Source: Escherichia phage Av-05
Reading direction: 5' to 3' (one strand)
DNA: 64,000 bases
Sequence record: KM190144
This document shows positions 2,576 through 27,576 of the stretch, one piece after another (the first letter of the stretch is position 1; every line of letters starts with the position of its first letter). A program made the translations under genes and the position numbers. The notes below the pieces were generated by a model. That model saw nothing but the letters and a program-made list of their open reading frames with translations. It had not been told where the DNA came from and searched no databases.

Positions 2576-4639
2576 ATGACAGAGGCTATTTTCACAGCCA
2601 GAAGAGAAGATGACTCTGTAGCTGTTAGCTTTGACTATGAAACAATATCAAACACAGCTATTGCTGGAAGAGATTATACACCCAAAGTAGGTACGGCAAC
2701 AATTCCTAAAGGGGAAAAGTCTGTACAGATACCTGTGGAGATAAAACAACATCCTAAAAACTCATTACCAAGAGAATTTACCTTGAAAATGAGTAATCCG
2801 TCTTTTGGTGCAAGGCTAGACAGGCTGGCTTCCAGATGTGTTATTAGCACCAAGGAGGATATGTCTGAGTTGGGGTGGGGAACAAAAGAAGAGAAAATGT
2901 TTCTACCTAAATATTGGACAATTGATTCTCAGCCCACAGAAAGTTGCTCTATAATATCTAATGGTAATATACTTACAGCTTATATGACTAATAGAACTGT
3001 AAGCGGTTTAGCAGGGGTTATTTGGAGCACAAAAGATAAGTATGATCATAAAGGGATCTCTTTTCAAGATCACACAGATCTTCGAAACGCTAAACTGTGG
3101 TTCGATATAGAGTTGGGCGACGGAATGCCTGATTTTAATAATGAGAAATTGACCCCGACATTAACTCTTAAACTTTTAGATGGGGCGACCCATTATATCC
3201 CTCTGTACGCTTATGCTGAAAATATCGGTGAGGATTATAAAAGAGCCACAATCAAACTTGATTTTTCAAATTTAAAATCCGGCCCTGATGTGAACGTGCC
3301 AGTGGATACCTCTCAAGTGGATCAGTTTTTCTTTTCTATGATATCTGAGAAGTATGCAGAAGGAGAAGATGTTGTCCCTAAAGAAAATCAGAACCTTATG
3401 TTGAAAATAACTCTTAAAGAGCCTGATACAGGCTATACAATGATGAGAGTTAATAATTTGACAATTCCTGCACATGATGTGCGTATGTGTACATCCTATG
3501 ATGATATGTATAACCTGACACCTGAACGAGTGGTGGACAACTGCTTGAAACTTGGGTACAGGGATATGATAAACCACTATAATGGTATGTCGCATTATTA
3601 CGAGTTCTCTTGGGAAAGCTCCGCATGGAAACTGAACAAAGATGTCCCTGTCAATAATGCAACCCTACAATGGATGAATAACTATTTCGCACTGACACGA
3701 GCAAATGGTTATAAGGTTATCAATTCTATTAGTTTTGAGTTGATGAGTACTGTATGTCCGGCAGAATGGGTGCAGCATGATTGGAATGATGCATTAGCTG
3801 AAACAGGATACACACCACCAAGTTGGGTATTATCTCCTAATATTAATGAGGGTATGCAATATATCCAAAGTGTGATAAATAAAATAGCAGCCACATGCGA
3901 ACAAGCTAACCAGGTTGTTATCATTCAGATAGGGGAGCCTTGGTGGTGGTATAATACTGCTACAAATTTACCTTGTGTGTATGATTATACTACAAAAGCG
4001 CGTTTTAATGAAGAGACTGGATTGTATGCTCAAGACATGGGGACAATTTATGACTTTAAGACCGGAACACCCTATGATGAGTATGTAGATTTTCTAAGAC
4101 AGTGCTTAGGGGAGCGAGTGGTAAAATTCGGTGCTGATCTTAAAAAATCTTATCCTAATGCAAAAATAACACTTTTACCGTTTTTACCATCCATTATTGG
4201 TAATGGTATTATGGAAAAGATAAATTTCCCTAGTGGTAGTTATACACCTGAGAATTTTGATCTCTATTGCTCCGAGTGCTATGACTGGTTACTCCAAGGG
4301 AAAATGGAAAAATCATTCCAAGCCATCACCATTCCGCGAGATGTCTTAAAATTTAAAGAAGATAAGATACATTATCTGGCAGGATTTGTTCCAGACGAAG
4401 GGCTAGCACCATTATACGGATTTGACCCTAATTCTAATTATAGAGAATATCTTTGGAAAATGATTATAGGGAACATTGTCCTTAATGAGTTTAAGTTTCC
4501 AGGTATTTATCAATACATATGGGCGTATCCACAAGTAATGCATGATTCTATAACAGTGCACAACTCTCAATCCGCAGTCTTTCATATGGGGCATACAGCA
4601 TTGAAAGGGTATTTAAAAGATACCCCACCAGAAGTTTAA
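2576..4639 (+). CDS. tail fibre/tailspike-like protein with Calx-beta-like N-terminal segment
   Basis: 687-aa ORF; N-terminal ...GRDYTP...GEKSVQIPVEI... resembles Calx-beta; large Trp/Tyr-rich C-terminal domain. Confidence 0.4.
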   Translation: MTEAIFTARREDDSVAVSFDYETISNTAIAGRDYTPKVGTATIPKGEKSVQIPVEIKQHPKNSLPREFTLKMSNPSFGARLDRLASRCVISTKEDMSELGWGTKEEKMFLPKYWTIDSQPTESCSIISNGNILTAYMTNRTVSGLAGVIWSTKDKYDHKGISFQDHTDLRNAKLWFDIELGDGMPDFNNEKLTPTLTLKLLDGATHYIPLYAYAENIGEDYKRATIKLDFSNLKSGPDVNVPVDTSQVDQFFFSMISEKYAEGEDVVPKENQNLMLKITLKEPDTGYTMMRVNNLTIPAHDVRMCTSYDDMYNLTPERVVDNCLKLGYRDMINHYNGMSHYYEFSWESSAWKLNKDVPVNNATLQWMNNYFALTRANGYKVINSISFELMSTVCPAEWVQHDWNDALAETGYTPPSWVLSPNINEGMQYIQSVINKIAATCEQANQVVIIQIGEPWWWYNTATNLPCVYDYTTKARFNEETGLYAQDMGTIYDFKTGTPYDEYVDFLRQCLGERVVKFGADLKKSYPNAKITLLPFLPSIIGNGIMEKINFPSGSYTPENFDLYCSECYDWLLQGKMEKSFQAITIPRDVLKFKEDKIHYLAGFVPDEGLAPLYGFDPNSNYREYLWKMIIGNIVLNEFKFPGIYQYIWAYPQVMHDSITVHNSQSAVFHMGHTALKGYLKDTPPEV

Positions 4640-9126: not shown

Positions 9127-9151
9127 AGGCCACAGCAGTGGCCTTTGTTTT
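9127..9151 (+). terminator. rho-independent terminator
   Basis: hairpin AGGCCACagcaGTGGCCT then TTGTTTT. Confidence 0.5.
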
Positions 9152-9161
9152 AGGAGGATTA

Positions 9162-11105
9162 ATGTATCCAATCCCTTGTTTTTATATCATAATTTCCAAT
9201 AACCCTCTAGCCAACTCCATTTCCTTAACCTCCCTCGGTACGTGTCTTAAAGGAGGCAAAGCACAATTAATATGGTCTGTTGTGCCAGAAGGTGCAGACT
9301 TGCATGATATAACATTTACACCAGACAAACCGACAATTGTATCTGTTGATCCTACGGGGCTAGTATCTTTTCTTGAAGATGGTGATTTTATCATCACAAT
9401 GTCTGCAAAGACTGGCAAAGGAGATGAAGAAAAGACCTTAACAGCACAAATCAATGGGCATGTTGACACATTACGCATTGATGTTGATCCTATAGGCAGC
9501 AGAAGCATTAGTGATAGATTCTGGTTTGTCTACAAAGGCGACCCGTCTTTTGACCCAGGCAATCCGAATCCGAATATGATTGGCTTTAACATCTCCCCAG
9601 CAGAAGTTATGGAGGAGGATGACTTTTATGTCACCGCAGTTTCTGAAACACCTGATATATTAAGTCTGGCTCCTAGTGGTATCATTACATGTGTTAGTAA
9701 AGGTGTTGGGCATTGTGGCATGAAAGGAACCTATAAAGATGTGACAGTAACGACGCTTACCGATGTATATGTGGATATAGCACCAGCACTTATAAATCCG
9801 ACTGCTGTAGCCAACAGTTATGGTGACGTTAAGATAGCGTGGGATGTTCAATTTCCCTCCTCGGATGATATTTATACCGTAGAGGTTTATGACCCTAAAA
9901 TGCCAGATGCTGTGTGGAGTAAGAAAACCAAAGACACATTCGTATTCTTTGATGTTACAGAATCAGTGCCTATCTTTGGATTCGCCCCTACATATCTTGA
10001 TGTGGTCATCAAAGGATCAAATCCAGAAACACAACCTATAAGTCCTGATAGGAATATAACTGTTGACGACTCTTTTGTTAAAGAGGTGCTTGTTTTTGCT
10101 GGCGGTGATAACGCAGCAGCGCATTTTAACTCTTTTTCTGGTAGGGATAAAACAACCCAAAGTGCGACCACAGCACGTAATGAGTATGCTCTCAGCAAAG
10201 GGTTTTACCCAGCAGAAGTATTACCAATCAATGCCGCATTCATTACATCTTGTGCAGAAGCACAGGCAAACTCCTCTACAGGGTTAGCCACAAATTACTG
10301 GTATGACGTTAGTTCCTCCACAGCAGGTCCGTGTCTAACACAGTTCCTTGCGAAGGTTAAACCTTATAAGGATAAAATTAAGGCTGTTTTCTGGTCGTTA
10401 GGGGAACAAGATGCCATGGTAGCAGCAGCAAAACAAGAGGGAAAACATAGCGATGATGCTCGTTTTCAGACTGCTATGACCGCCATCTTTGAAAATATCC
10501 GATCTGTTATCACAAATCCTGAAGCCAAGATTGTATTGCAGACACTTGGCAGATGCTTTGATGATGATGTGGAAGTAGGTGGTGTTGAGTGGTATCGTTA
10601 TAGAAATATTCAACAACAGTTAGTGGTAGATTCCAAGGGTGGAGTTATAATTGGCTCTTGGGTTGATGGCGCTGAACACTACGGCAATTATGTTGTTTCA
10701 GGGGCAGGGGGTGGTTTAAGAATACACTACCGACCAACAATTTATAAGAATGCCGCAATATCCTTGGCTAACATGGAGGACTTGTCGAGCACACCTCCTG
10801 CTTGGGTGGATATGAAAGTTCCCATGGGAGGAAAGGCAGTAAGGCAAGCAAACCAAGATATTCTTTTATCATGGGATACCAGAGACTACAGCAAGTTCTC
10901 TCTTTTTAACTTTGATGTCCTGACAGGGGCTGTTATATCCCAACAAACATTGACCACCAATAGTTACACATTTACCTACGCAGATCAAGTAAAACAGTAC
11001 GGGTATGCTGCGGGTACAGTTTTGTTTGGTGTTGCATATGTTCAAACAACCAGTAAAGGTGATATTACATCTCCGTTGGCGAAATTCAATATTAATGTAG
11101 CGTGA
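9162..11105 (+). CDS. tail fibre/tailspike protein
   Basis: ATG at 9162 with TAGGAGGA SD (track start 9138 is a GTG inside the terminator hairpin); large beta-rich protein. Confidence 0.45.
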   Translation: MYPIPCFYIIISNNPLANSISLTSLGTCLKGGKAQLIWSVVPEGADLHDITFTPDKPTIVSVDPTGLVSFLEDGDFIITMSAKTGKGDEEKTLTAQINGHVDTLRIDVDPIGSRSISDRFWFVYKGDPSFDPGNPNPNMIGFNISPAEVMEEDDFYVTAVSETPDILSLAPSGIITCVSKGVGHCGMKGTYKDVTVTTLTDVYVDIAPALINPTAVANSYGDVKIAWDVQFPSSDDIYTVEVYDPKMPDAVWSKKTKDTFVFFDVTESVPIFGFAPTYLDVVIKGSNPETQPISPDRNITVDDSFVKEVLVFAGGDNAAAHFNSFSGRDKTTQSATTARNEYALSKGFYPAEVLPINAAFITSCAEAQANSSTGLATNYWYDVSSSTAGPCLTQFLAKVKPYKDKIKAVFWSLGEQDAMVAAAKQEGKHSDDARFQTAMTAIFENIRSVITNPEAKIVLQTLGRCFDDDVEVGGVEWYRYRNIQQQLVVDSKGGVIIGSWVDGAEHYGNYVVSGAGGGLRIHYRPTIYKNAAISLANMEDLSSTPPAWVDMKVPMGGKAVRQANQDILLSWDTRDYSKFSLFNFDVLTGAVISQQTLTTNSYTFTYADQVKQYGYAAGTVLFGVAYVQTTSKGDITSPLAKFNINVA

Positions 11106-11110
11106 TAGCA

Positions 11111-11141
11111 AAATAAAAGGGAGCTAAAAGCTCCCTTTTAT
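11111..11141. terminator. bidirectional terminator between convergent late (+) and early (-) blocks
   Basis: hairpin AAGGGAGCtaaaAGCTCCCTT flanked by A-run and T-run. Confidence 0.55.
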
Positions 11142-11158
11142 ATTAACAAATGCTACTT

Positions 11159-12331
11159 TTAGAAAGGAATATCTTCATCGTAGTCAAACTCAGGTGCTGG
11201 CGACTCCATATTCGGAATATCGCTGTTAGCACTGTTCAAAGGTTCCTTAGCATCCTGTTTGTTCTCTTGTTGTGTCTTCCCATCACCTTTAGATAAGAAC
11301 TCGTAAAAAGGCTCTGACAGCGTTAGGTAAACATCTTTAGCGGCATTAAGAATGCCATCTTCTGTTAGTTTATCGATTTGATGATACAAAGCACAAGCTA
11401 CTAAGATAGCATTACCCGCACTAGCACCCACCGCATTAGATTCCACATCTTTTCCTGTTCTCTCTGCCACAAAAGCCTTCATAGCTACTGTAGCGTTGTG
11501 AACCATCTTCGCGGCAGAGAGACGATCCTCGATCTTAAAACCAGCTTTAATGAGTTCCTTCACACCGTTGATGCCGTGCCCACAAGCAACACCTAAAGCA
11601 TCATAGCCGCCAGATGACTTCTTAGTCTGCCCAGCAGGACCGTAGGCTTTAAATCCACTTAAGACCGTACCATCACTTAGGTTAACAATCGCAGTGACAC
11701 GACCACCTACTGCAACTTGCGACAATTGCTCATCTGTGAGGACAAGGTTTCCTTGACCATTCTTCTCATCATTAACTGTCACCACATTGCCAACGATTGC
11801 AGCAATCTCACCATAAATTTTAGTGCCTTTAACTTGGGCATTTGCAGGTGATTGGGTCGAAGATTGCTGGCGAGGAGCACTTTGACCAACTTTGCTTTCA
11901 TCAAGAATGCTGAAGGTCTTTCCGTTTAAAGTGCCGTTTGTATACGTTTTATCCACACTCTTAGTAATTTTGAGAGGGAAAGAAACAACCATCCCCGCCA
12001 CAATATCTTTGTATCCAGAATCAAATTTCACCTGAATTTTGTCTGCATGGCTTGGGTGAAGTTTTTTCTCACCCATAGAAATCCACTCACCTTGGCTCTG
12101 TGGGTCAATAACGTTGTTATTATCGTCAACCTCTTGCATCAGGAAACTGATTGAGTGCGTGGCCTCAATAACTTTAGCTGGTTGCCCATTGCGAGCAGGG
12201 ATATGGGTACGCCGGATACCATCTGCGTCAGCGTTTTTCACTGGACGAATATTAACATACTTGATAAAACCTTTCGCAAAATAATCAACTTTTCCGTTGA
12301 TTGGGTTTTTAAATTCATTGATTACGCTCAT
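11159..12331 (-). CDS. DNA-binding protein with SSB-type acidic C-terminal tail
   Basis: C-terminus ...EFDYDEDIPF matches the E. coli SSB tip (DDDIPF); start taken at internal ATG with AAGGAGAG SD. Confidence 0.4.
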   Translation of the reverse strand: MSVINEFKNPINGKVDYFAKGFIKYVNIRPVKNADADGIRRTHIPARNGQPAKVIEATHSISFLMQEVDDNNNVIDPQSQGEWISMGEKKLHPSHADKIQVKFDSGYKDIVAGMVVSFPLKITKSVDKTYTNGTLNGKTFSILDESKVGQSAPRQQSSTQSPANAQVKGTKIYGEIAAIVGNVVTVNDEKNGQGNLVLTDEQLSQVAVGGRVTAIVNLSDGTVLSGFKAYGPAGQTKKSSGGYDALGVACGHGINGVKELIKAGFKIEDRLSAAKMVHNATVAMKAFVAERTGKDVESNAVGASAGNAILVACALYHQIDKLTEDGILNAAKDVYLTLSEPFYEFLSKGDGKTQQENKQDAKEPLNSANSDIPNMESPAPEFDYDEDIPF

Positions 12332-12344
12332 TCTCTCTCCTTTA

Positions 12345-12686
12345 TTACTTAACGCCTTCAGCAGTTTCGTTTCCAACGCTCAACATCTTATCTACCACTA
12401 AATCTTCAACTTGATTTAGCAGGTTCAATGCAAAAGTGGAAGCAGTATTTAATTTCAACAAATTGTTGCGGTGTCCTCGGATCCATGAAATTGCATCCTC
12501 TACCGTTTTATAGTTACCACTTTGGATGAGCTTTAGCATCTCTTCTCGAATTTCTTTCGACCCGATTACTGTTCCCATCTGGTGGCTGGCGCTGGACAAG
12601 TATACAATTGTTCCAAACTGCCCTTCATCAAGATCAAGAAAACGGATATCTTCTTTGCTTTCAGGTGTTTGTTTTTCTTCAGACAT
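12345..12686 (-). CDS. hypothetical protein
   Basis: 113-codon ORF in co-directional array. Confidence 0.35.
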   Translation of the reverse strand: MSEEKQTPESKEDIRFLDLDEGQFGTIVYLSSASHQMGTVIGSKEIREEMLKLIQSGNYKTVEDAISWIRGHRNNLLKLNTASTFALNLLNQVEDLVVDKMLSVGNETAEGVK

Positions 12687-12941
12687 GTCTATTCCTTACA
12701 AGGTTGGTGAGTATTACATCTTACACTATGCGTGTATGTATGTCAAGATGATTTTTTGTCTTTTTCTTGGAGAAAAGACAGGACAAATGCTGTAACCGCT
12801 ATAATCAAAGGTGGCATGACAACAATTGCCCATGGTAGGTATAGAGGGGCAAGAACTAACCACCAAGACCAGTCTATAATCTCACACAACTTCAACGCTA
12901 TGAAGAGAATGCTTAACGCAGATAAAAATCTCATAGAGACC

Positions 12942-21433: not shown

Positions 21434-22276
21434 CACTAGTTCAAGGAGTTCGCTACTCTCCCCCGCACCGTTACGTGCATAGCCACAAGATTTCTCCTGT
21501 GGGTCAGACTATATCATAACCCTTTTTCAAGGGTTCCTCCCGTTTGGACCGCGCTTGCTGGCCTACTCTACTCGCTTCTTCACATCAGATGAAGCTGATG
21601 CTATGCTTTCGATAGTCGTTGAACGTCACTTACCAAGTATAGTCTTTAGAGATATGCACCCACAATCTCCGTTGTTTAATTCCTTTTACGGATGGGTAGG
21701 GGTATCCGAGATCTCTAATCTCGCATTGCCTTAGCCCTGACTGTAGCAATTCACAAATCTCTCTCACATCTTTTTCTGTGAGAATGGCATTCGCATTGTT
21801 TTCACCAATAGGTATAACACGTAATCCTGTATCGTAAGCATGTTTTATATTGCTGCCATGTGTCCCCCACTCAAGATTCCACGCTGCGTTATTAAGTTTG
21901 TTTCCATCTTTATGATTAACGCTGGTGAATCTTTCTGGATCTGGATTAGGCACAAAACATTCTGCCACCATCCGATGTATGGCTTTCGTACAGGACTTAC
22001 CGTCTATCCTTATAATTGTACACAGATATCCCCTCCCATTATCAAATACCTGCAAGGGAAGTTTATCTCTTTTTGAAAGAGGCGTGGAACCATCTTCAAA
22101 AACTGTATACCCATGGTAATCTTTTGCTTTTACCATTTTACTATACCTCTTTAAGTTTTCGCTGCGGATTGGCATATTGTCCTTATAACACAATACATTA
22201 TAAGAATCAACTTAGCTTTCCCGACAATTAGAGAGGTTTTCGACATGCATTACTGCATGAAGCCACAATGTTATTT
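21434..22276 (-). mobile_element. group I intron 2 in DNA polymerase gene
   Basis: on sense strand: starts right after exon T, in-frame stop, P-like aattgtcgggaaa, Q-like caatccgcagcg, R-like cgttcaacgactatcg, S-like gatatagtctga, ends in G; boundaries within a few nt. Confidence 0.6.
21630..22136 (-). CDS. intron-encoded HNH homing endonuclease
   Basis: HKDGNKLNNAAWNLEWGTHGSN HNH motif; start at ATG preceded by AAGAGG. Confidence 0.6.
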   Translation of the reverse strand: MVKAKDYHGYTVFEDGSTPLSKRDKLPLQVFDNGRGYLCTIIRIDGKSCTKAIHRMVAECFVPNPDPERFTSVNHKDGNKLNNAAWNLEWGTHGSNIKHAYDTGLRVIPIGENNANAILTEKDVREICELLQSGLRQCEIRDLGYPYPSVKGIKQRRLWVHISKDYTW

Positions 22277-22609
22277 ATGGTAGTAGATAACCCTTCTGAC
22301 ACCCTGGTCGTACCATCCCCGTTTCACCAATTCCCAATGGAACAGGACTCCCATGAGGTCAAACAATGAAGCACCACCGTTTTGTTGGTAAGCATTCAGC
22401 AGAGAATGTTTAGAACGAGTCCAAATTTTACGCCCATCCATACCTGGAATATAGCGTCTCCCATTTGCCTCCCAGAATTTTTCTAACCACTCCCTACGCA
22501 TTTTCAACCCGAAGTTACTATCCCAGAATGCGTCTATTACAGCCTGTGCTCTATTAAGGGGGATACCCAGCATTGCGGCTATCTTAGGAGCTTGTGCTCC
22601 ATACATGAT
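22277..22609 (-). CDS. DNA polymerase, family A, exon 2 of 3
   Basis: IMYGAQ... and GMDGRKIWTRSKHSLLNAYQQNGGASLF align with T7 gp5 motif B region and downstream. Confidence 0.6.
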
Positions 22610-23343
22610 CATATTGTTCAACATGGCTCGCTACACCATGCCCGTCCTTTTAGGAACTGCTACATATTTCTATGCAGATCAGACTATATCTTCATCCTTT
22701 TCAGGATGCCCACCGCTTCGGCAGTCTGAAAGACTGGAGGTTTCCCTCACCGCTTGGCCCTACGCCTTTCGGCTAGTCGTTGAAGTTTCGAATGCTTCCC
22801 AACATTTATGTTCTATTTGATGGCATTTTTTACAAAGTAATTCAAAATTACTTATTTCGTTATTCGTCCTGTCATGGTCAATATGATGAACGCACCATTC
22901 ATCTTTACCTGCATAAAGAAGATCTTTATTACATCTATTACAGTATCTTCTCTGTTCCTTTATGACAGGGGATAACTTACGAAACATCGATATGCCATTT
23001 TTATAAAATTTGGACAATTTCCCACGAGGCTGCCCACCACCTTTTCCTATGCCAACTCTGTCAAGCCTATTTTCTCTTTCGGCCTTTCTGCGTCTATATT
23101 CTCTGGTTTTTATCTTTGAATATTCTCTTCTACAACCTTCAGAGAGACATACTTTTTGATTTTTACCAGTTTTAACACATTGTTCACCGCAGATTATACA
23201 ACAAAATGTGCCCATATTCTCCCTCCTTTTGTAAGAGGGAAGCATTCGCTTACCTGCTGATTATCTTCGACATAACTCGGTCAGATTTCCCAGCAATTCA
23301 ATGGGTGCACCTTACAAATTACTTTGTAAGGGGGCTATCATTA
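22610..23343 (-). mobile_element. group I intron 1 in DNA polymerase gene
   Basis: sense strand begins taa after exon ...ITYG; P-like aattgctgggaaa, Q-like aatcagcagg, R-like cttcaacgactagcc, S-like aagatatagtctga; boundaries within a few nt. Confidence 0.6.
22760..23215 (-). CDS. intron-encoded HNH homing endonuclease
   Basis: Cys-rich N-terminus, CVHHIDHDRTNNEISNFELLCKKCHQIEH HNH motif; ATG with AAAAGGAGGG SD. Confidence 0.65.
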   Translation of the reverse strand: MGTFCCIICGEQCVKTGKNQKVCLSEGCRREYSKIKTREYRRRKAERENRLDRVGIGKGGGQPRGKLSKFYKNGISMFRKLSPVIKEQRRYCNRCNKDLLYAGKDEWCVHHIDHDRTNNEISNFELLCKKCHQIEHKCWEAFETSTTSRKA

Positions 23344-25380
23344 ACCATACGTAATCCCCTTTCCTCCAGAGCGTGTTACCTCCTTTCCTGCTGCTATTGT
23401 GTATGCTCTTGCGTTTCGTTCATGGGCATCCTCTTCCATCATGATACGTAAATACTCACCACCATCAAACTCAAAAGCCCCTGCTGCAGCAATCATACCT
23501 TCTAAGTTAGACCCGTCACAACCCATCAGGTAGTAGCCTTCAGGGACTGTCCAAAGACCCCGCATTTCTTTTCCCAACAAAACCTTCGGATCAGGCTTGG
23601 GCATGTTTGCGCAAACAGTGTGCTTGCACCTGCCCGTGTTAGTGATTCCAGAAAAACGTGCTGGAAGTTTTCCGTCAATGTCTAAACGAGGGTGATTTAA
23701 TAACCCTGTATCCGTCTTGTCCTCATCCATTGGGTCTAAAACAGATCGCCTGTTACGAAGTGATAACCACTTAACAATCTGTTTTGCCATATGCACATCA
23801 ATTTTCTCCAGATTTGGACACAGATGCCCAAAATTATCTTTTAGTTGAGGAGATGTCGGTAACTGGCGTGCCTTACGCCGAAATTTCTTAAATATCTCTG
23901 AATAACCTCTTTCAGATGCATGTCGATGGTCAAACTTACGCTCTGAAATGTTGAATTTCTCATCTGAATCATTAAGGTAGTCAAGAATAAGAGATTTATA
24001 CTCAGACTCAGCCAACTCTTCTATGTACTTCTTAACTAGTACATCAATTTCAGAATCTTCTCTGGCCTTTTTAAATTGATCCTTCGTAACGTCCTTTACA
24101 CGCCACAGTGTAGGTTTCCAACCAGCATCTTTGATCAGATATTTTTTAATGTCATCTTGATTGGAGATTTTCATTGGAACCATTAAATCTGGCATTTTTC
24201 TGTTTCGAAGGTCTTCTTTAGCCTTCTCTAGAAGATCCGGCGGCAAAGGTTCGAGTGTGTTCTCTTTGGTTCGCTGGGAACGAATGAAATTACCGTATAA
24301 AGCCGGATCTTCAATGCCATTCTGGATGCAATATCTCTCCCCTGCTGCACTTACATCCCCATTACTCTTAAAAGCTGTTTTTGGTGGGGCTTTAAACTCT
24401 AGAGCTTCTCTGTTAACAGGATAACCAAGTTTATATTCCAACCAATTCCACCCATGATAAGATATATTACCCGCTGTGTCAAAAGGGTTAGCTGGGAATT
24501 TTGGTTGTTGGGATTTCGTCATCTCTTTTTTTGGAAGAAGTGGTTCTACCTCTTCTTCAATCTCCCGCATCATCTTATCTATGCGGTCTCTTAATTTTTC
24601 TGCCTCCTCTCGATTAAAGTATACACCCTGTATTTCTTGCTCTATCATCAAATAGTCTGTGAGCATTCTCCTACGTAATGCATTTTTCCAATTAATCTGG
24701 TGCATCCCGTGAGGTTTATCAGCATACATGAACTGCTTGTCATCAGGCCATCGCGTACCATTTGACTCGTCAATAAGAGCTTTCCACACAAGTTCGTTAA
24801 TGATAACGTCTTCCCACACACGGTTTACATATTCCCACAATGGTTGATTACGCCAATCATCAATCTGTACTTTCTTGTTTGCCACACGATAACCCCATGC
24901 CAATAAGCCGTGTGGCCCAACCCTATCACGTTTTCCTGTTACAGGGTTTAATACAGAGTCTGGGCAGCCATTAGGCAATGGGCGATCTGGGTAAAGAACA
25001 CGACTCATTGAAAGAGTGTCGTAAAGATTTACCTGTTTATTACCTATCGTCCCCATACATTTTGGGTCTTTGAACATATCATATTCAATCCCAGAAAGTT
25101 TTTTCCACAGACGTAAATCATAGCCAAACAGGTTATGTATTGCTATCCCTCTTGGTTCGGTCTGTAACCAAGAGTAAAAATCATCATAAGAAAGGATTCG
25201 TAAATTAACACCTTCTTTGCTGCGTGCAAAATTAACTGCACTCTGGTATTCCTTGTGAGCAGGATCGAGAAACAACACCCAGTTATTTACAGCATATTCT
25301 TTAAAAAGTGTGCAGTGATATTTAGTTGCCTCTTCTAATAATCCGTCAGCCTCTGTATCGGCTAAAAAAAGTCCTTTCAT
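23344..25380 (-). CDS. DNA polymerase, family A, exon 1 of 3 (3'-5' exonuclease plus N-terminal polymerase part)
   Basis: MKGLFLADTEADGLLEEATKYHC resembles T7 gp5 N-terminus (exo motif I); ends KGITYG at motif B; start at ATG with TAGGAGGAG SD. Confidence 0.65.
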
Positions 25381-25575
25381 ACTCCTCCTATTCAAGATGG
25401 GCTTGACTGTATCGTCGCCCATCTCTTAGTTGGTTATAGATTATGTGGAAAACTACCTATTTTTGATTTATGTTTCTTTGCCAAAGGGCTTCTCTTGGCG
25501 GGAATGTATCCCTCAAGCCCCTTGGCAACACGAATAGCTAACTCATCATATTTTACATGTATCCTCTTTTTTCTC

Positions 25576-27576
25576 TCAAAATGGAGAATCGCTATCTAAA
25601 TCTTCAGGTTGCTCAATCACAACAGCAGGTTCTTGTTGAGGAACAGAAACAGCAATTTTCCCCACAGGTGTTTCAAGTTCCAGACTTTGAATCATTGATT
25701 TAGGTCTTAGCATTACCTCCCCATTAAGTTTAAACATACCATCTTCCCACACCCAACCAGATGCATCAGAAAACTGACCATTATCATCCATAATCAGAGT
25801 ATCCGCTATGCCTAATTTTTTGTGTGGACGGTTTTTCAAAACAACACTACGAATACGCCCACGAGATCGGTCAGGGAGTTCTTCAGGCTCGACACCTAAG
25901 ACAACCCACGATAACTGTTCGAGTGCTGCACTTCCCCTTAAAGATTCTTTTCTCACCGGATACCAGAAAGGTAACAAATTACCTTCTTTATCTTTCGGAA
26001 TTTGTATATCAACACGCTTCATATGACTGATACTGAGGATAAACACGTCATATTTTTTGCAGAAGGCAGCCAATTCCGTCATGATGTTATCTAAATCTCT
26101 TCTCTCGTTATCAGATTTTAATCCTGATATCACCATCGACAAGTGATCTAAAATAATCCACCTACACCCGTCAAGGAAAACCATCTGTTTCAATTTTTGT
26201 AGTAATTGGTCAGTCGGTATTGAACCAAAGTGATCAAAAATTTTAACCTTATCTTCGGCAATCCACCGTTGGTGTATAGCTAAGTGCTGCTCATCGGTAA
26301 GAAATTGCTCTGGATCTGCAACAAATGCTTTCGGGTCAATTTTTAACTCCTCAGCATATAGACTGTTTACAGACTCCTCTTCATCCTCCTCTAGACGGAT
26401 AATTGCAATTTTCTCGTTCTCTTTCCAACCGTCCAGTCGGGGAATATCCATGTTACGGAGGTACTCGATAATTGCATACTCAATCTTTCTTGAGAAAGTT
26501 GATTTCCCAGCTCCAGATGGGCCTGTCAGTGTCCACAATTCTCCTGTTCGTGGGCCTCTTGTTAGTTCATACAAACGAGGAAAGCACGGCAACGGAACGC
26601 CATCTTTTTTCTTTTTACGGAGATTTTCAATAGATATTCTCTCCAACCCAATCAATTTGTCTGGAACATATTTATCCTGCGCTTTAGCAAACATGTTCCA
26701 GATATCCATCCACTTACCTTTTTTGTAAATATCCCGGATATCTTTAACACCATTTGGGTCATTGCGTTCATTTGGGTATCGTGCAACGTAGATATTGTCA
26801 GACAGTAAAAAACCTGCGACATCATCTGTAGCTTCCTTGCCTTTCTTAATTCTGTGTTCTTTTTCCCTTGCTGTGGCTTCATCATTGTCTAAACCAAGGA
26901 CAATCTTTTCATATTCCCTGATAAACTTTTCGTTGTGGGCAAATGTATCTACCGCATTGGCTGTTCCACAGTTCAACCCGATAAAAGGTAATGTCGGGCA
27001 ATTAGAAACCTCCTCACCATCCTGAATGGCTTTGATACCTTTTAAAGCATTGTTTGCCCACTCACGTACTGAACGTGACGTATTAGGATTACTATGAAGA
27101 AATTTAATATACTCAAACCCAGCTTGCCAGCCAGCCGTTACATCGCCTTCCCCCTCAACAATAAAGATCTGTTTTTTACCAGATCCCATAGAGGCCTCAT
27201 GTTGACCAAAAAATTGAGAGGAAGCCTTTACTGTGCCAACAACAGAGAAATGCCCCTTTTTCTCTTTCGGAACAGTCCAGTCTCGTTTCTTGTACCCTGT
27301 CAATTTCCCATATTTGTCATAATATGGAAGATATGTTGCCACTACTGTAGTACCGTCTTTCAAATCTGTTGCAGATCTGATCTTGAAGTACTTAGCTGCA
27401 TCTAAACTAATATCCATTTGGGGGACAGCCAAGATCCTTGTACTATCCAGGACAGACTCTACAGTTTCTTCTTCTTTTTTCTGATAATTCACTTTACCAC
27501 CACTTTTTGTAGGTCGGAATGCTTTTGGGTTCTCACCTTCAAAGTATGCACCAGCCCCCCATTTTGTAATCTTCAT
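25576..27576 (-). CDS. primase-helicase (T7 gp4-like)
   Basis: Walker A GPSGAGKST, Walker B-like WIILDH, acidic C-terminal tail ...DSDSPF. Confidence 0.6.
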   Translation of the reverse strand: MKITKWGAGAYFEGENPKAFRPTKSGGKVNYQKKEEETVESVLDSTRILAVPQMDISLDAAKYFKIRSATDLKDGTTVVATYLPYYDKYGKLTGYKKRDWTVPKEKKGHFSVVGTVKASSQFFGQHEASMGSGKKQIFIVEGEGDVTAGWQAGFEYIKFLHSNPNTSRSVREWANNALKGIKAIQDGEEVSNCPTLPFIGLNCGTANAVDTFAHNEKFIREYEKIVLGLDNDEATAREKEHRIKKGKEATDDVAGFLLSDNIYVARYPNERNDPNGVKDIRDIYKKGKWMDIWNMFAKAQDKYVPDKLIGLERISIENLRKKKKDGVPLPCFPRLYELTRGPRTGELWTLTGPSGAGKSTFSRKIEYAIIEYLRNMDIPRLDGWKENEKIAIIRLEEDEEESVNSLYAEELKIDPKAFVADPEQFLTDEQHLAIHQRWIAEDKVKIFDHFGSIPTDQLLQKLKQMVFLDGCRWIILDHLSMVISGLKSDNERRDLDNIMTELAAFCKKYDVFILSISHMKRVDIQIPKDKEGNLLPFWYPVRKESLRGSAALEQLSWVVLGVEPEELPDRSRGRIRSVVLKNRPHKKLGIADTLIMDDNGQFSDASGWVWEDGMFKLNGEVMLRPKSMIQSLELETPVGKIAVSVPQQEPAVVIEQPEDLDSDSPF

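Follow-up and report, generated by a model that had tools for sequence, protein, structure and literature searches.

A probable non-canonical single-stranded DNA-binding protein with an SSB-type C-terminal tip in Escherichia phage Av-05

The tail of the SSB (single-stranded DNA-binding protein) of Escherichia coli reads MDFDDDIPF and closes a last stretch of 11 residues, PPMDFDDDIPF; in docking, this C-terminal tip (SSB-Ct) relies on its final Phe having a free carboxylate. In phage T7, the tails of the SSB (gp2.5) and the helicase (gp4), which end in ...DGDF and ...DTDF, respectively, dock on the phage polymerase, and in phage HK620 an SSB described as a distant homologue of bacterial SSB recruits the phage protein Sak4 through an NDYPPF tip. 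The SSB of phage N4 (gp45) is phage-specific, bears no sequence relation to bacterial SSB, and has a basic tail (...SLFGKK) with no acidic tip. The closest described protein is Bas52_0087 (QXV84166.1), which a 2026 preprint predicts to be 'SSB-like', with two oligonucleotide/oligosaccharide-binding (OB) folds and a disordered C-terminus carrying FDDDIPF; a D252V or Y351C substitution in this protein allows phage Bas52 to escape the DRT10 (UG17) reverse-transcriptase defence (bioRxiv 10.64898/2026.04.29.721553). The same preprint showed separately that DRT10 defence is modulated by the dosage of SbcB/ExoI and suggested competition with, or displacement of, SbcB; a host-interaction proposal for Bas52_0087 has been on record since April 2026 (bioRxiv 10.64898/2026.04.29.721553). 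Here, we analyzed the gene Av05_00107 in a stretch of 64,000 nucleotides from Escherichia phage Av-05 (sequence record KM190144; the whole stretch is called the window below). Its product, to which the window protein is an exact match (YP_009111181.1), is annotated 'hypothetical protein', and we find that it is probably a functional SSB of the phage's own, non-canonical in sequence and equipped with a docking tip.

The window protein is a new member of the recently described family of the Bas52_0087 type. Its homology to that family extends over the full length, its tip is of the FDDDIPF type, and its predicted domains come in the same order, a pair of OB folds being followed by a helical domain and a disordered tail. 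The match to Bas52_0087 itself was inferred through the orthologues of phages MaxTheCat/Bas57 (Vequintavirus) and EmilHeitz/Bas49. With 38.9% identity to the window protein, the Bas57 orthologue carries D at position 252, Y at position 351, and FDDDIPF at its C-terminus, which places the window protein and Bas52_0087 in the same family. When aligned with this orthologue, the DRT10-escape positions D252 and Y351 map to D244 and Y343 of the window protein, and D244 is present in 41 of the 42 sequences in an alignment of relatives. The window protein differs from the described family member in that it comes from an Avunavirus, ends in DYDEDIPF and not FDDDIPF, and has a shorter linker between the OB folds.

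PHROG 4477, a family that carries no assigned function, matched the window protein over residues 1-390 (E 2e-155), and 54 homologue clusters covered 100% of its length. When 1.84 billion representative proteins were searched exhaustively with a profile, 192 relatives came up, and tblastn placed the family in 359 phage records; all of these belong to rV5-like groups, and nearly every one has the annotation 'hypothetical'. Depositors named a few homologues as SSBs (in ESCO5 and ESCO32); ESCO5 gp88 belongs to a short type of 260-300 residues, to which many family members belong and which has no middle beta domain; the tip, the linker, and the helical domain are retained in it, as is the N-terminal OB fold. 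We considered these short members as possible N4-type SSBs and rejected the assignment, given an hhalign probability of 0.3% and the basic tail of the N4 protein. The SSB-like family and N4 SSB are alike in being phage-specific and lacking a sequence relation to bacterial SSB, but they are unrelated to each other.

The window tail FDYDEDIPF is identical to the E. coli SSB tail at six of nine positions and similar at eight, and the consensus terminus of close relatives in the 42-sequence alignment, PPMDFDDDIPF, is the same as the final 11-residue stretch of E. coli SSB. When the family profile was run against the PDB, its sole sequence match was E. coli SSB (1eqq_A, E 0.023) at positions 153-178, which span the end of the linker and the tip; this match supports the E. 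coli SSB terminus used for the comparison. D385, P389, and F390 are invariant in the alignment, next to a preceding linker that is highly variable in both length and sequence. Among 181 homologue clusters of at least 220 residues, counted from two homologue searches, 142 end in PF and 135 in [IVL]PF; Asp occupies positions -3 to -5 in 69-78% of them, and basic residues are nearly absent from the last ten. Because 135 of the 181 clusters end in [IVL]PF, the tail is not a chance match. On this evidence from sequence conservation, the tip is under strong purifying selection, and its resemblance to the SSB tip is more than chance. A census covered 1,385 six-frame open reading frames (ORFs) of at least 50 residues, drawn from the window and from the relative TH18, whose genome is complete. 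Just two long ORFs in it had an acidic end in PF, those of the SSB-like protein and the primase-helicase; the remaining PF-ending ORFs were 50-67 residues long, non-acidic, and unannotated. The initial annotation had proposed both that the C-terminus EFDYDEDIPF copies the E. coli SSB tail and that the primase-helicase ends in an acidic DSDSPF tail. Both claims were borne out, the first by the similarity and family conservation just described, and the second by the primase-helicase C-terminus, which reads ...EQPEDLDSDSPF.

The predicted structure of the full-length protein comprises two OB folds, followed by a helical domain, a disordered linker, and the SSB-Ct-type tip. For both OB folds, the best structural matches of the model were ssDNA (single-stranded DNA) binders. 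A short disordered G/S-rich linker (residues 234-242) leads into the four-helix domain, which spans residues 245-348 in the model, is followed by a disordered tail (residues 350-390), and matched generic helical bundles only, and a Foldseek search against viral predicted structures returned nothing outside the family at significant E-values. The window protein and E. coli Ssb (PF00436 / TIGR00621) thus share a predicted OB fold, a disordered linker, and an acidic D-[IVL]-P-F tip. However, the OB domains have no detectable sequence similarity, as the OB profile of the bacterial SSB family did not match the window protein and phmmer gave an E-value of 2.9, and the window protein has two OB folds per chain and a four-helix domain in addition.

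To look for a second, canonical SSB, every six-frame ORF of the window and of TH18 (133.9 kb, standing in for Av-05 outside the window) was searched with phmmer --max, and 81 window ORFs were scanned against Pfam and PHROG (best 25 families per scan); no bacterial-type SSB and no gp2.5 or gp32 homologue turned up in the window or the TH18 genome, and none is annotated in TH18. The SSB-like protein is the sole SSB candidate in the window and in the complete genome of this close relative, and the simplest reading is that it is the replicative SSB of the phage.

In the mechanism that we propose, the two OB-fold domains (residues 1-150 and 167-233) would, judging by their fold, bind ssDNA exposed at the phage replication fork, and the four-helix domain (residues 243-349) may mediate self-association, as suggested by the positions of the DRT10-escape substitutions in the orthologue. 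A disordered C-terminal linker of about 40 residues presents, as sequence conservation shows, an acidic tip ending in D-I-P-F-COOH. By analogy with E. coli SSB-Ct and T7 gp2.5/gp4, this tip would serve as a docking peptide: its terminal Phe, with the free carboxylate, would enter a pocket on partner proteins that is hydrophobic and basic, so that the ssDNA-bound protein could recruit these partners or compete for them. Candidate host partners are the SSB-interacting proteins ExoI/SbcB, chi, PriA, RecQ, RecO, and others. The candidate phage partner is the family-A DNA polymerase, which the primase-helicase probably contacts through its related ...D-S-P-F tail. We regard the choice between a host and a phage partner as roughly even, and the tip may serve both. 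The identity of the consensus with the host SSB terminus over 11 residues, the I/L/V at position -2, and the link to SbcB point to host partners, while the ...[ST]PF tail of the helicase beside a family-A polymerase is, by analogy, at least as compatible with the T7 arrangement as with host docking. The initial annotation, which had called for a check for OB folds and suggested that the phage may use a host-like tip to recruit or compete for SSB-interacting host proteins, is partly supported. An SSB-like protein agrees with the predicted build, the conservation of the tip, and the status of sole SSB candidate, and the host-interaction idea is the one already proposed in print for Bas52_0087 (bioRxiv 10.64898/2026.04.29.721553), whereas a T7-like arrangement matches the tails at least as well as a host partner does.

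Several observations weigh against the view that Av05_00107 is a functional SSB with a docking tip. The protein shows no relation to characterised SSBs: it had no match in Pfam or NCBIfam, searches of the PDB with the single sequence and with profiles returned nothing except the tail, and hhalign probabilities were 0.1% for E. coli SSB, 0.3% for T7 gp2.5, and 0.3% for N4 SSB, with no phmmer match to T7 gp2.5. Of the two DRT10-escape positions, Y343 is only moderately conserved (23 of 42 sequences). Bas52_0087 expressed alone neither harmed E. coli nor triggered DRT10 (bioRxiv 10.64898/2026.04.29.721553), and therefore does not cause gross titration of host SSB partners. Finally, some alleles of 405 residues, as well as the viable phage EmilHeitz/Bas49, carry 15 residues past the terminal Phe, which should block docking; such natural alleles with a buried terminal Phe suggest that a protein of this kind can at times do without a free tip.

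The strongest alternative, which we consider possible but clearly less likely, is that the tails are used within the phage replisome only, in the manner of T7. The acidic tails of the SSB-like protein and the primase-helicase would then bind the phage family-A polymerase at its basic patches and thereby coordinate polymerase loading and SSB displacement, and the resemblance to the host tip would reflect shared chemistry or ancestry and not hijacking. The replisome composition is that of T7, with a gp4-like primase-helicase and a family-A polymerase, and in both phage types the SSB or SSB-like protein and the primase-helicase each end in an acidic, Phe-terminated tail. The T7 tails, those of gp2.5 and gp4, both bind gp5 at basic patches, and the terminal Phe of gp2.5 is essential. 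The acidic tail of the primase-helicase is conserved in its own family, with a PF end in 100 of 118 homologue clusters and S/T/C/E at position -2. HK620 provides a further precedent, as its protein is a phage SSB whose last six, DDDIPF-like residues are needed to work with a phage partner, Sak4, and the harmlessness of the orthologue expressed alone is also in line with purely internal use. On the other hand, an 11-residue identity between the close-relative consensus and the E. coli SSB terminus goes beyond what shared chemistry needs. The SSB-like family has I/L/V at position -2, which, set against the S/T/C/E of the helicase, suggests different pockets. The Pro at -1 and I/L/V at -2 of this family are features of bacterial SSB-Ct, and the T7 tails have no I-P-F motif; T7 gp2.5 shows no sequence similarity to the SSB-like protein. 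SbcB/ExoI dosage also modulates the DRT10 defence against Bas52, whose SSB-like protein triggers that defence.

We also weighed the view that the protein is a decoy or anti-host factor, in which the tip mainly serves to sequester or inhibit host SSB partners such as ExoI or RecQ, with the OB-like domains as scaffolds, and so protects phage DNA ends or disables host repair and defence. The lack of any sequence relation to known SSBs, the status of ssDNA binding as a prediction from the fold, and the SbcB competition or displacement suggested in the preprint are in its favor. We nevertheless find it improbable, as the protein is conserved across the 359 rV5-like phage records, its gene sits in a block that includes replication genes, no second SSB was found in the window or the TH18 genome, the two predicted OB folds have ssDNA binders as their best matches, and the orthologue alone is harmless to cells. 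A chance DIPF end without function, for which nothing speaks except the shortness of the motif, can be dismissed, since it is refuted by the invariant tip residues beside a hypervariable linker and by the [IVL]PF end of 135 of 181 clusters.

The extension past the terminal Phe bears on how a phage SSB with a docking tip would be used. This cap is a conserved stretch of 14-17 residues that starts directly after the terminal ...D-x-P-F with [AS]P[IV]GL[QP]Y and continues with further residues; its commonest form is APIGLPYPRHAIYVI, and its pattern is AP[IV]GL[QP]Y-x-x-h-x-h-x-h. The window allele has no cap, its stop codon (11159-11161) directly following DIPF. Among the 15 listed members of the cluster of proteins at least 90% identical to the window protein, nine have the capped length of 405 residues and six have 390 residues; the cap is shown for the 405-residue representative (P0001), which is 98% identical to the window protein and ends in ...DIPF-SPVGLQYGKHRVYIL. 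Capped proteins, with [AS]P[IV]GL[QP]Y followed by 6-9 residues, make up 16 of 200 SSB-like proteins and two primase-helicase clusters. The cap lies at 4174-4218 in the loci of relatives L007 and L008, at 2725-2772 in L003, and at 5017-5064 in L009, and is also found in L012-L131. In L007, whose SSB-like protein is 98% identical to that of the window, DNA similarity to the window stops exactly where the tip's Pro-Phe codons (CCTTTC) end, and this point is therefore a recombination junction.

A degenerate-DNA scan of IMG/VR identified at least 120 loci with PF-AP[IVM]GL[QP]Y. In the 120 listed carriers, the motif was always in frame, right after a ...D-D-[IVT]-P-F tip and at the end of the ORF, and 104 of them were canonical bacterial-type SSBs, mostly on phage contigs of 40-60 kb. 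The NCBIfam SSB profile stops exactly at DDIPF, and the cap lies past its end. A megablast search of complete E. coli genomes with two capped SSB genes gave no match, and the sequence motif had no match in the searched literature. HNH genes lie right after, or overlap, the capped 3' ends in L003 (2744-3367; EmilHeitz/Bas49) and L009 (5121-5666), and are found downstream in L014, L025, L027, and L043. HNH homing-endonuclease genes adjoin the capped gene directly in several rV5-type cases and one canonical-SSB case, but not in most carriers. The placement of these genes suggests either that HNH elements home to the conserved DNA encoding the tip or that they carry the cap with them, and the cap appears to spread partly with HNH homing endonucleases just downstream. 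We rejected the idea that it is solely a by-product of a homing endonuclease at the stop codon, because L007, L008, and most of the 40-60-kb carriers have no common downstream endonuclease and because the cap has been kept despite many synonymous codon changes.

Since SSB-Ct docking needs the free carboxylate of the terminal Phe, the cap should mask the tip or replace its function, and its presence is an argument that some phages regulate the free tip or can dispense with it. We therefore put forward, tentatively and as an idea that we hold to be rather unlikely in its full form, that the SSB-type tip is a switchable element. The cap follows the Phe directly in four settings: in nine of the 15 listed members of the window protein's own cluster, in SSB-like proteins elsewhere among the rV5-type phages, in some of their primase-helicases, and in over 100 phage-contig SSBs of the canonical type. 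If the idea were true, masking by the cap might keep the protein from titrating host partners or from setting off DRT10 and similar defences; or else the cap might contribute a docking motif of its own, as a second one.

The coordinates of the SSB-like gene, its domains, and the replication genes with which it is compared are collected in Table 1.

Table 1. Window positions of the SSB-like gene, its flanking signals and predicted domains, and two replication genes
Feature	Coordinates	Strand	Basis or remark
Coding sequence of the SSB-like protein, 390 residues plus stop	11159..12331	minus	full-length PHROG 4477 match, E 2e-155
Ribosome-binding site AAGGAGAGAGA	12335..12342	minus	read from the sequence upstream of the ATG
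Intrinsic-terminator-like hairpin	11113..11141	minus	directly 3' of the stop; no C-terminal extension in the window allele
Predicted N-terminal divergent OB-fold domain, residues 1-150	11882..12331	minus	beta domain in the full-length model
Q/S/A-rich disordered linker, residues 151-166	11834..11881	minus	predicted local distance difference test (pLDDT) score <50; length and sequence both vary
Second, compact beta-barrel, probably another OB fold, residues 167-233	11633..11833	minus	predicted structure
Predicted four-helix domain, residues 243-349, with D244 (nt 11600-11602) and Y343 (nt 11303-11305)	11285..11605	minus	
Disordered variable linker, Q/K/P/acidic-rich, residues 350-379	11195..11284	minus	pLDDT 29-35; variable alignment columns
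SSB-Ct-type acidic tip PEFDYDEDIPF with free terminal Phe, residues 380-390	11162..11194	minus	
Primase-helicase (DnaB_C domain), 666 residues, ending in ...EDLDSDSPF (tail nt 25579-25602)	25576..27576	minus	100% identical to the Av-05 protein
Family-A DNA polymerase, N-terminal part, 693 residues; candidate partner of both tails	23341..25422	minus	

The SSB-like ORF lies on the minus strand and runs from an ATG at 12331 to a C-terminus of ...NMESPAPEFDYDEDIPF. The ORF listing allows a longer version starting with a TTG at 12376; we took the ATG as the start because all homologues open with MSVI or MTVI and because a strong ribosome-binding site, AAGGAGAGAGA, lies directly upstream, and the coordinates first assigned to the gene (11159-12331) were right on both counts. 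The gene is the last of a minus-strand block of about 30 kb that includes replication genes and holds the primase-helicase, an HNH-interrupted family-A DNA polymerase, a PIF1-like helicase, and an RNA ligase. Beyond the hairpin, convergent plus-strand ORFs start, in a block that carries tail-type family matches. The convergent gene 3' of the SSB-like gene (9138-11105, plus) encodes 655 residues, and its counterpart in L007 (4404-5036) encodes 210 residues with the same N-terminus. On the other side, 13 nt upstream of the SSB-like gene, lies the gene of an acidic 113-residue protein of unassigned function (12345-12686, minus), which is preceded by a sigma-70-like promoter match at 12718-12746 (10/12). 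The two genes may be co-transcribed behind this promoter match.

The polymerase gene is split within 22271-25422 (minus) into the N-terminal part, an HNH ORF at 22760-23245, and a remainder ORF at 22271-22624; the split polymerase of the relative 18-1-2 is annotated likewise, and the DNA_pol_A Pfam match lies on an uninterrupted homologue in L009. The primase-helicases of relatives (P0217-P0252) have 974-975 residues, many being 98-99% identical to that of the window and about 308 residues longer. This extra length is the size of an intein, and Hom_end/LAGLIDADG Pfam domains are present in P0307, a more distant homologue; apparently, the Av-05 copy is free of the intein-sized insert. A third acidic, aromatic-terminated tail in this phage type is that of the ribonucleotide reductase beta subunit of TH18 (L006, 13420-14505), which ends in ...EEEIWDF; the acidic tail of the small subunit of this enzyme binds the large subunit.

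If Av05_00107 is indeed an SSB with a docking tip, rV5-like phages (Vequintavirinae, Stephanstirmvirinae, and relatives), a large group that provides common therapy candidates, use for replication an SSB whose scaffold has no sequence relation to known SSBs and yet bears a docking peptide that appears to match the host SSB's exactly. The family would then test, as an experiment of nature, to what extent the SSB-Ct 'interaction code' can be transferred between scaffolds and would offer a handle on phage interference with host DNA-processing enzymes such as ExoI. It would also explain why defences such as DRT10 sense the SSB-like protein. The window protein and its homologues in the 359 phage records could be re-annotated as putative SSBs.
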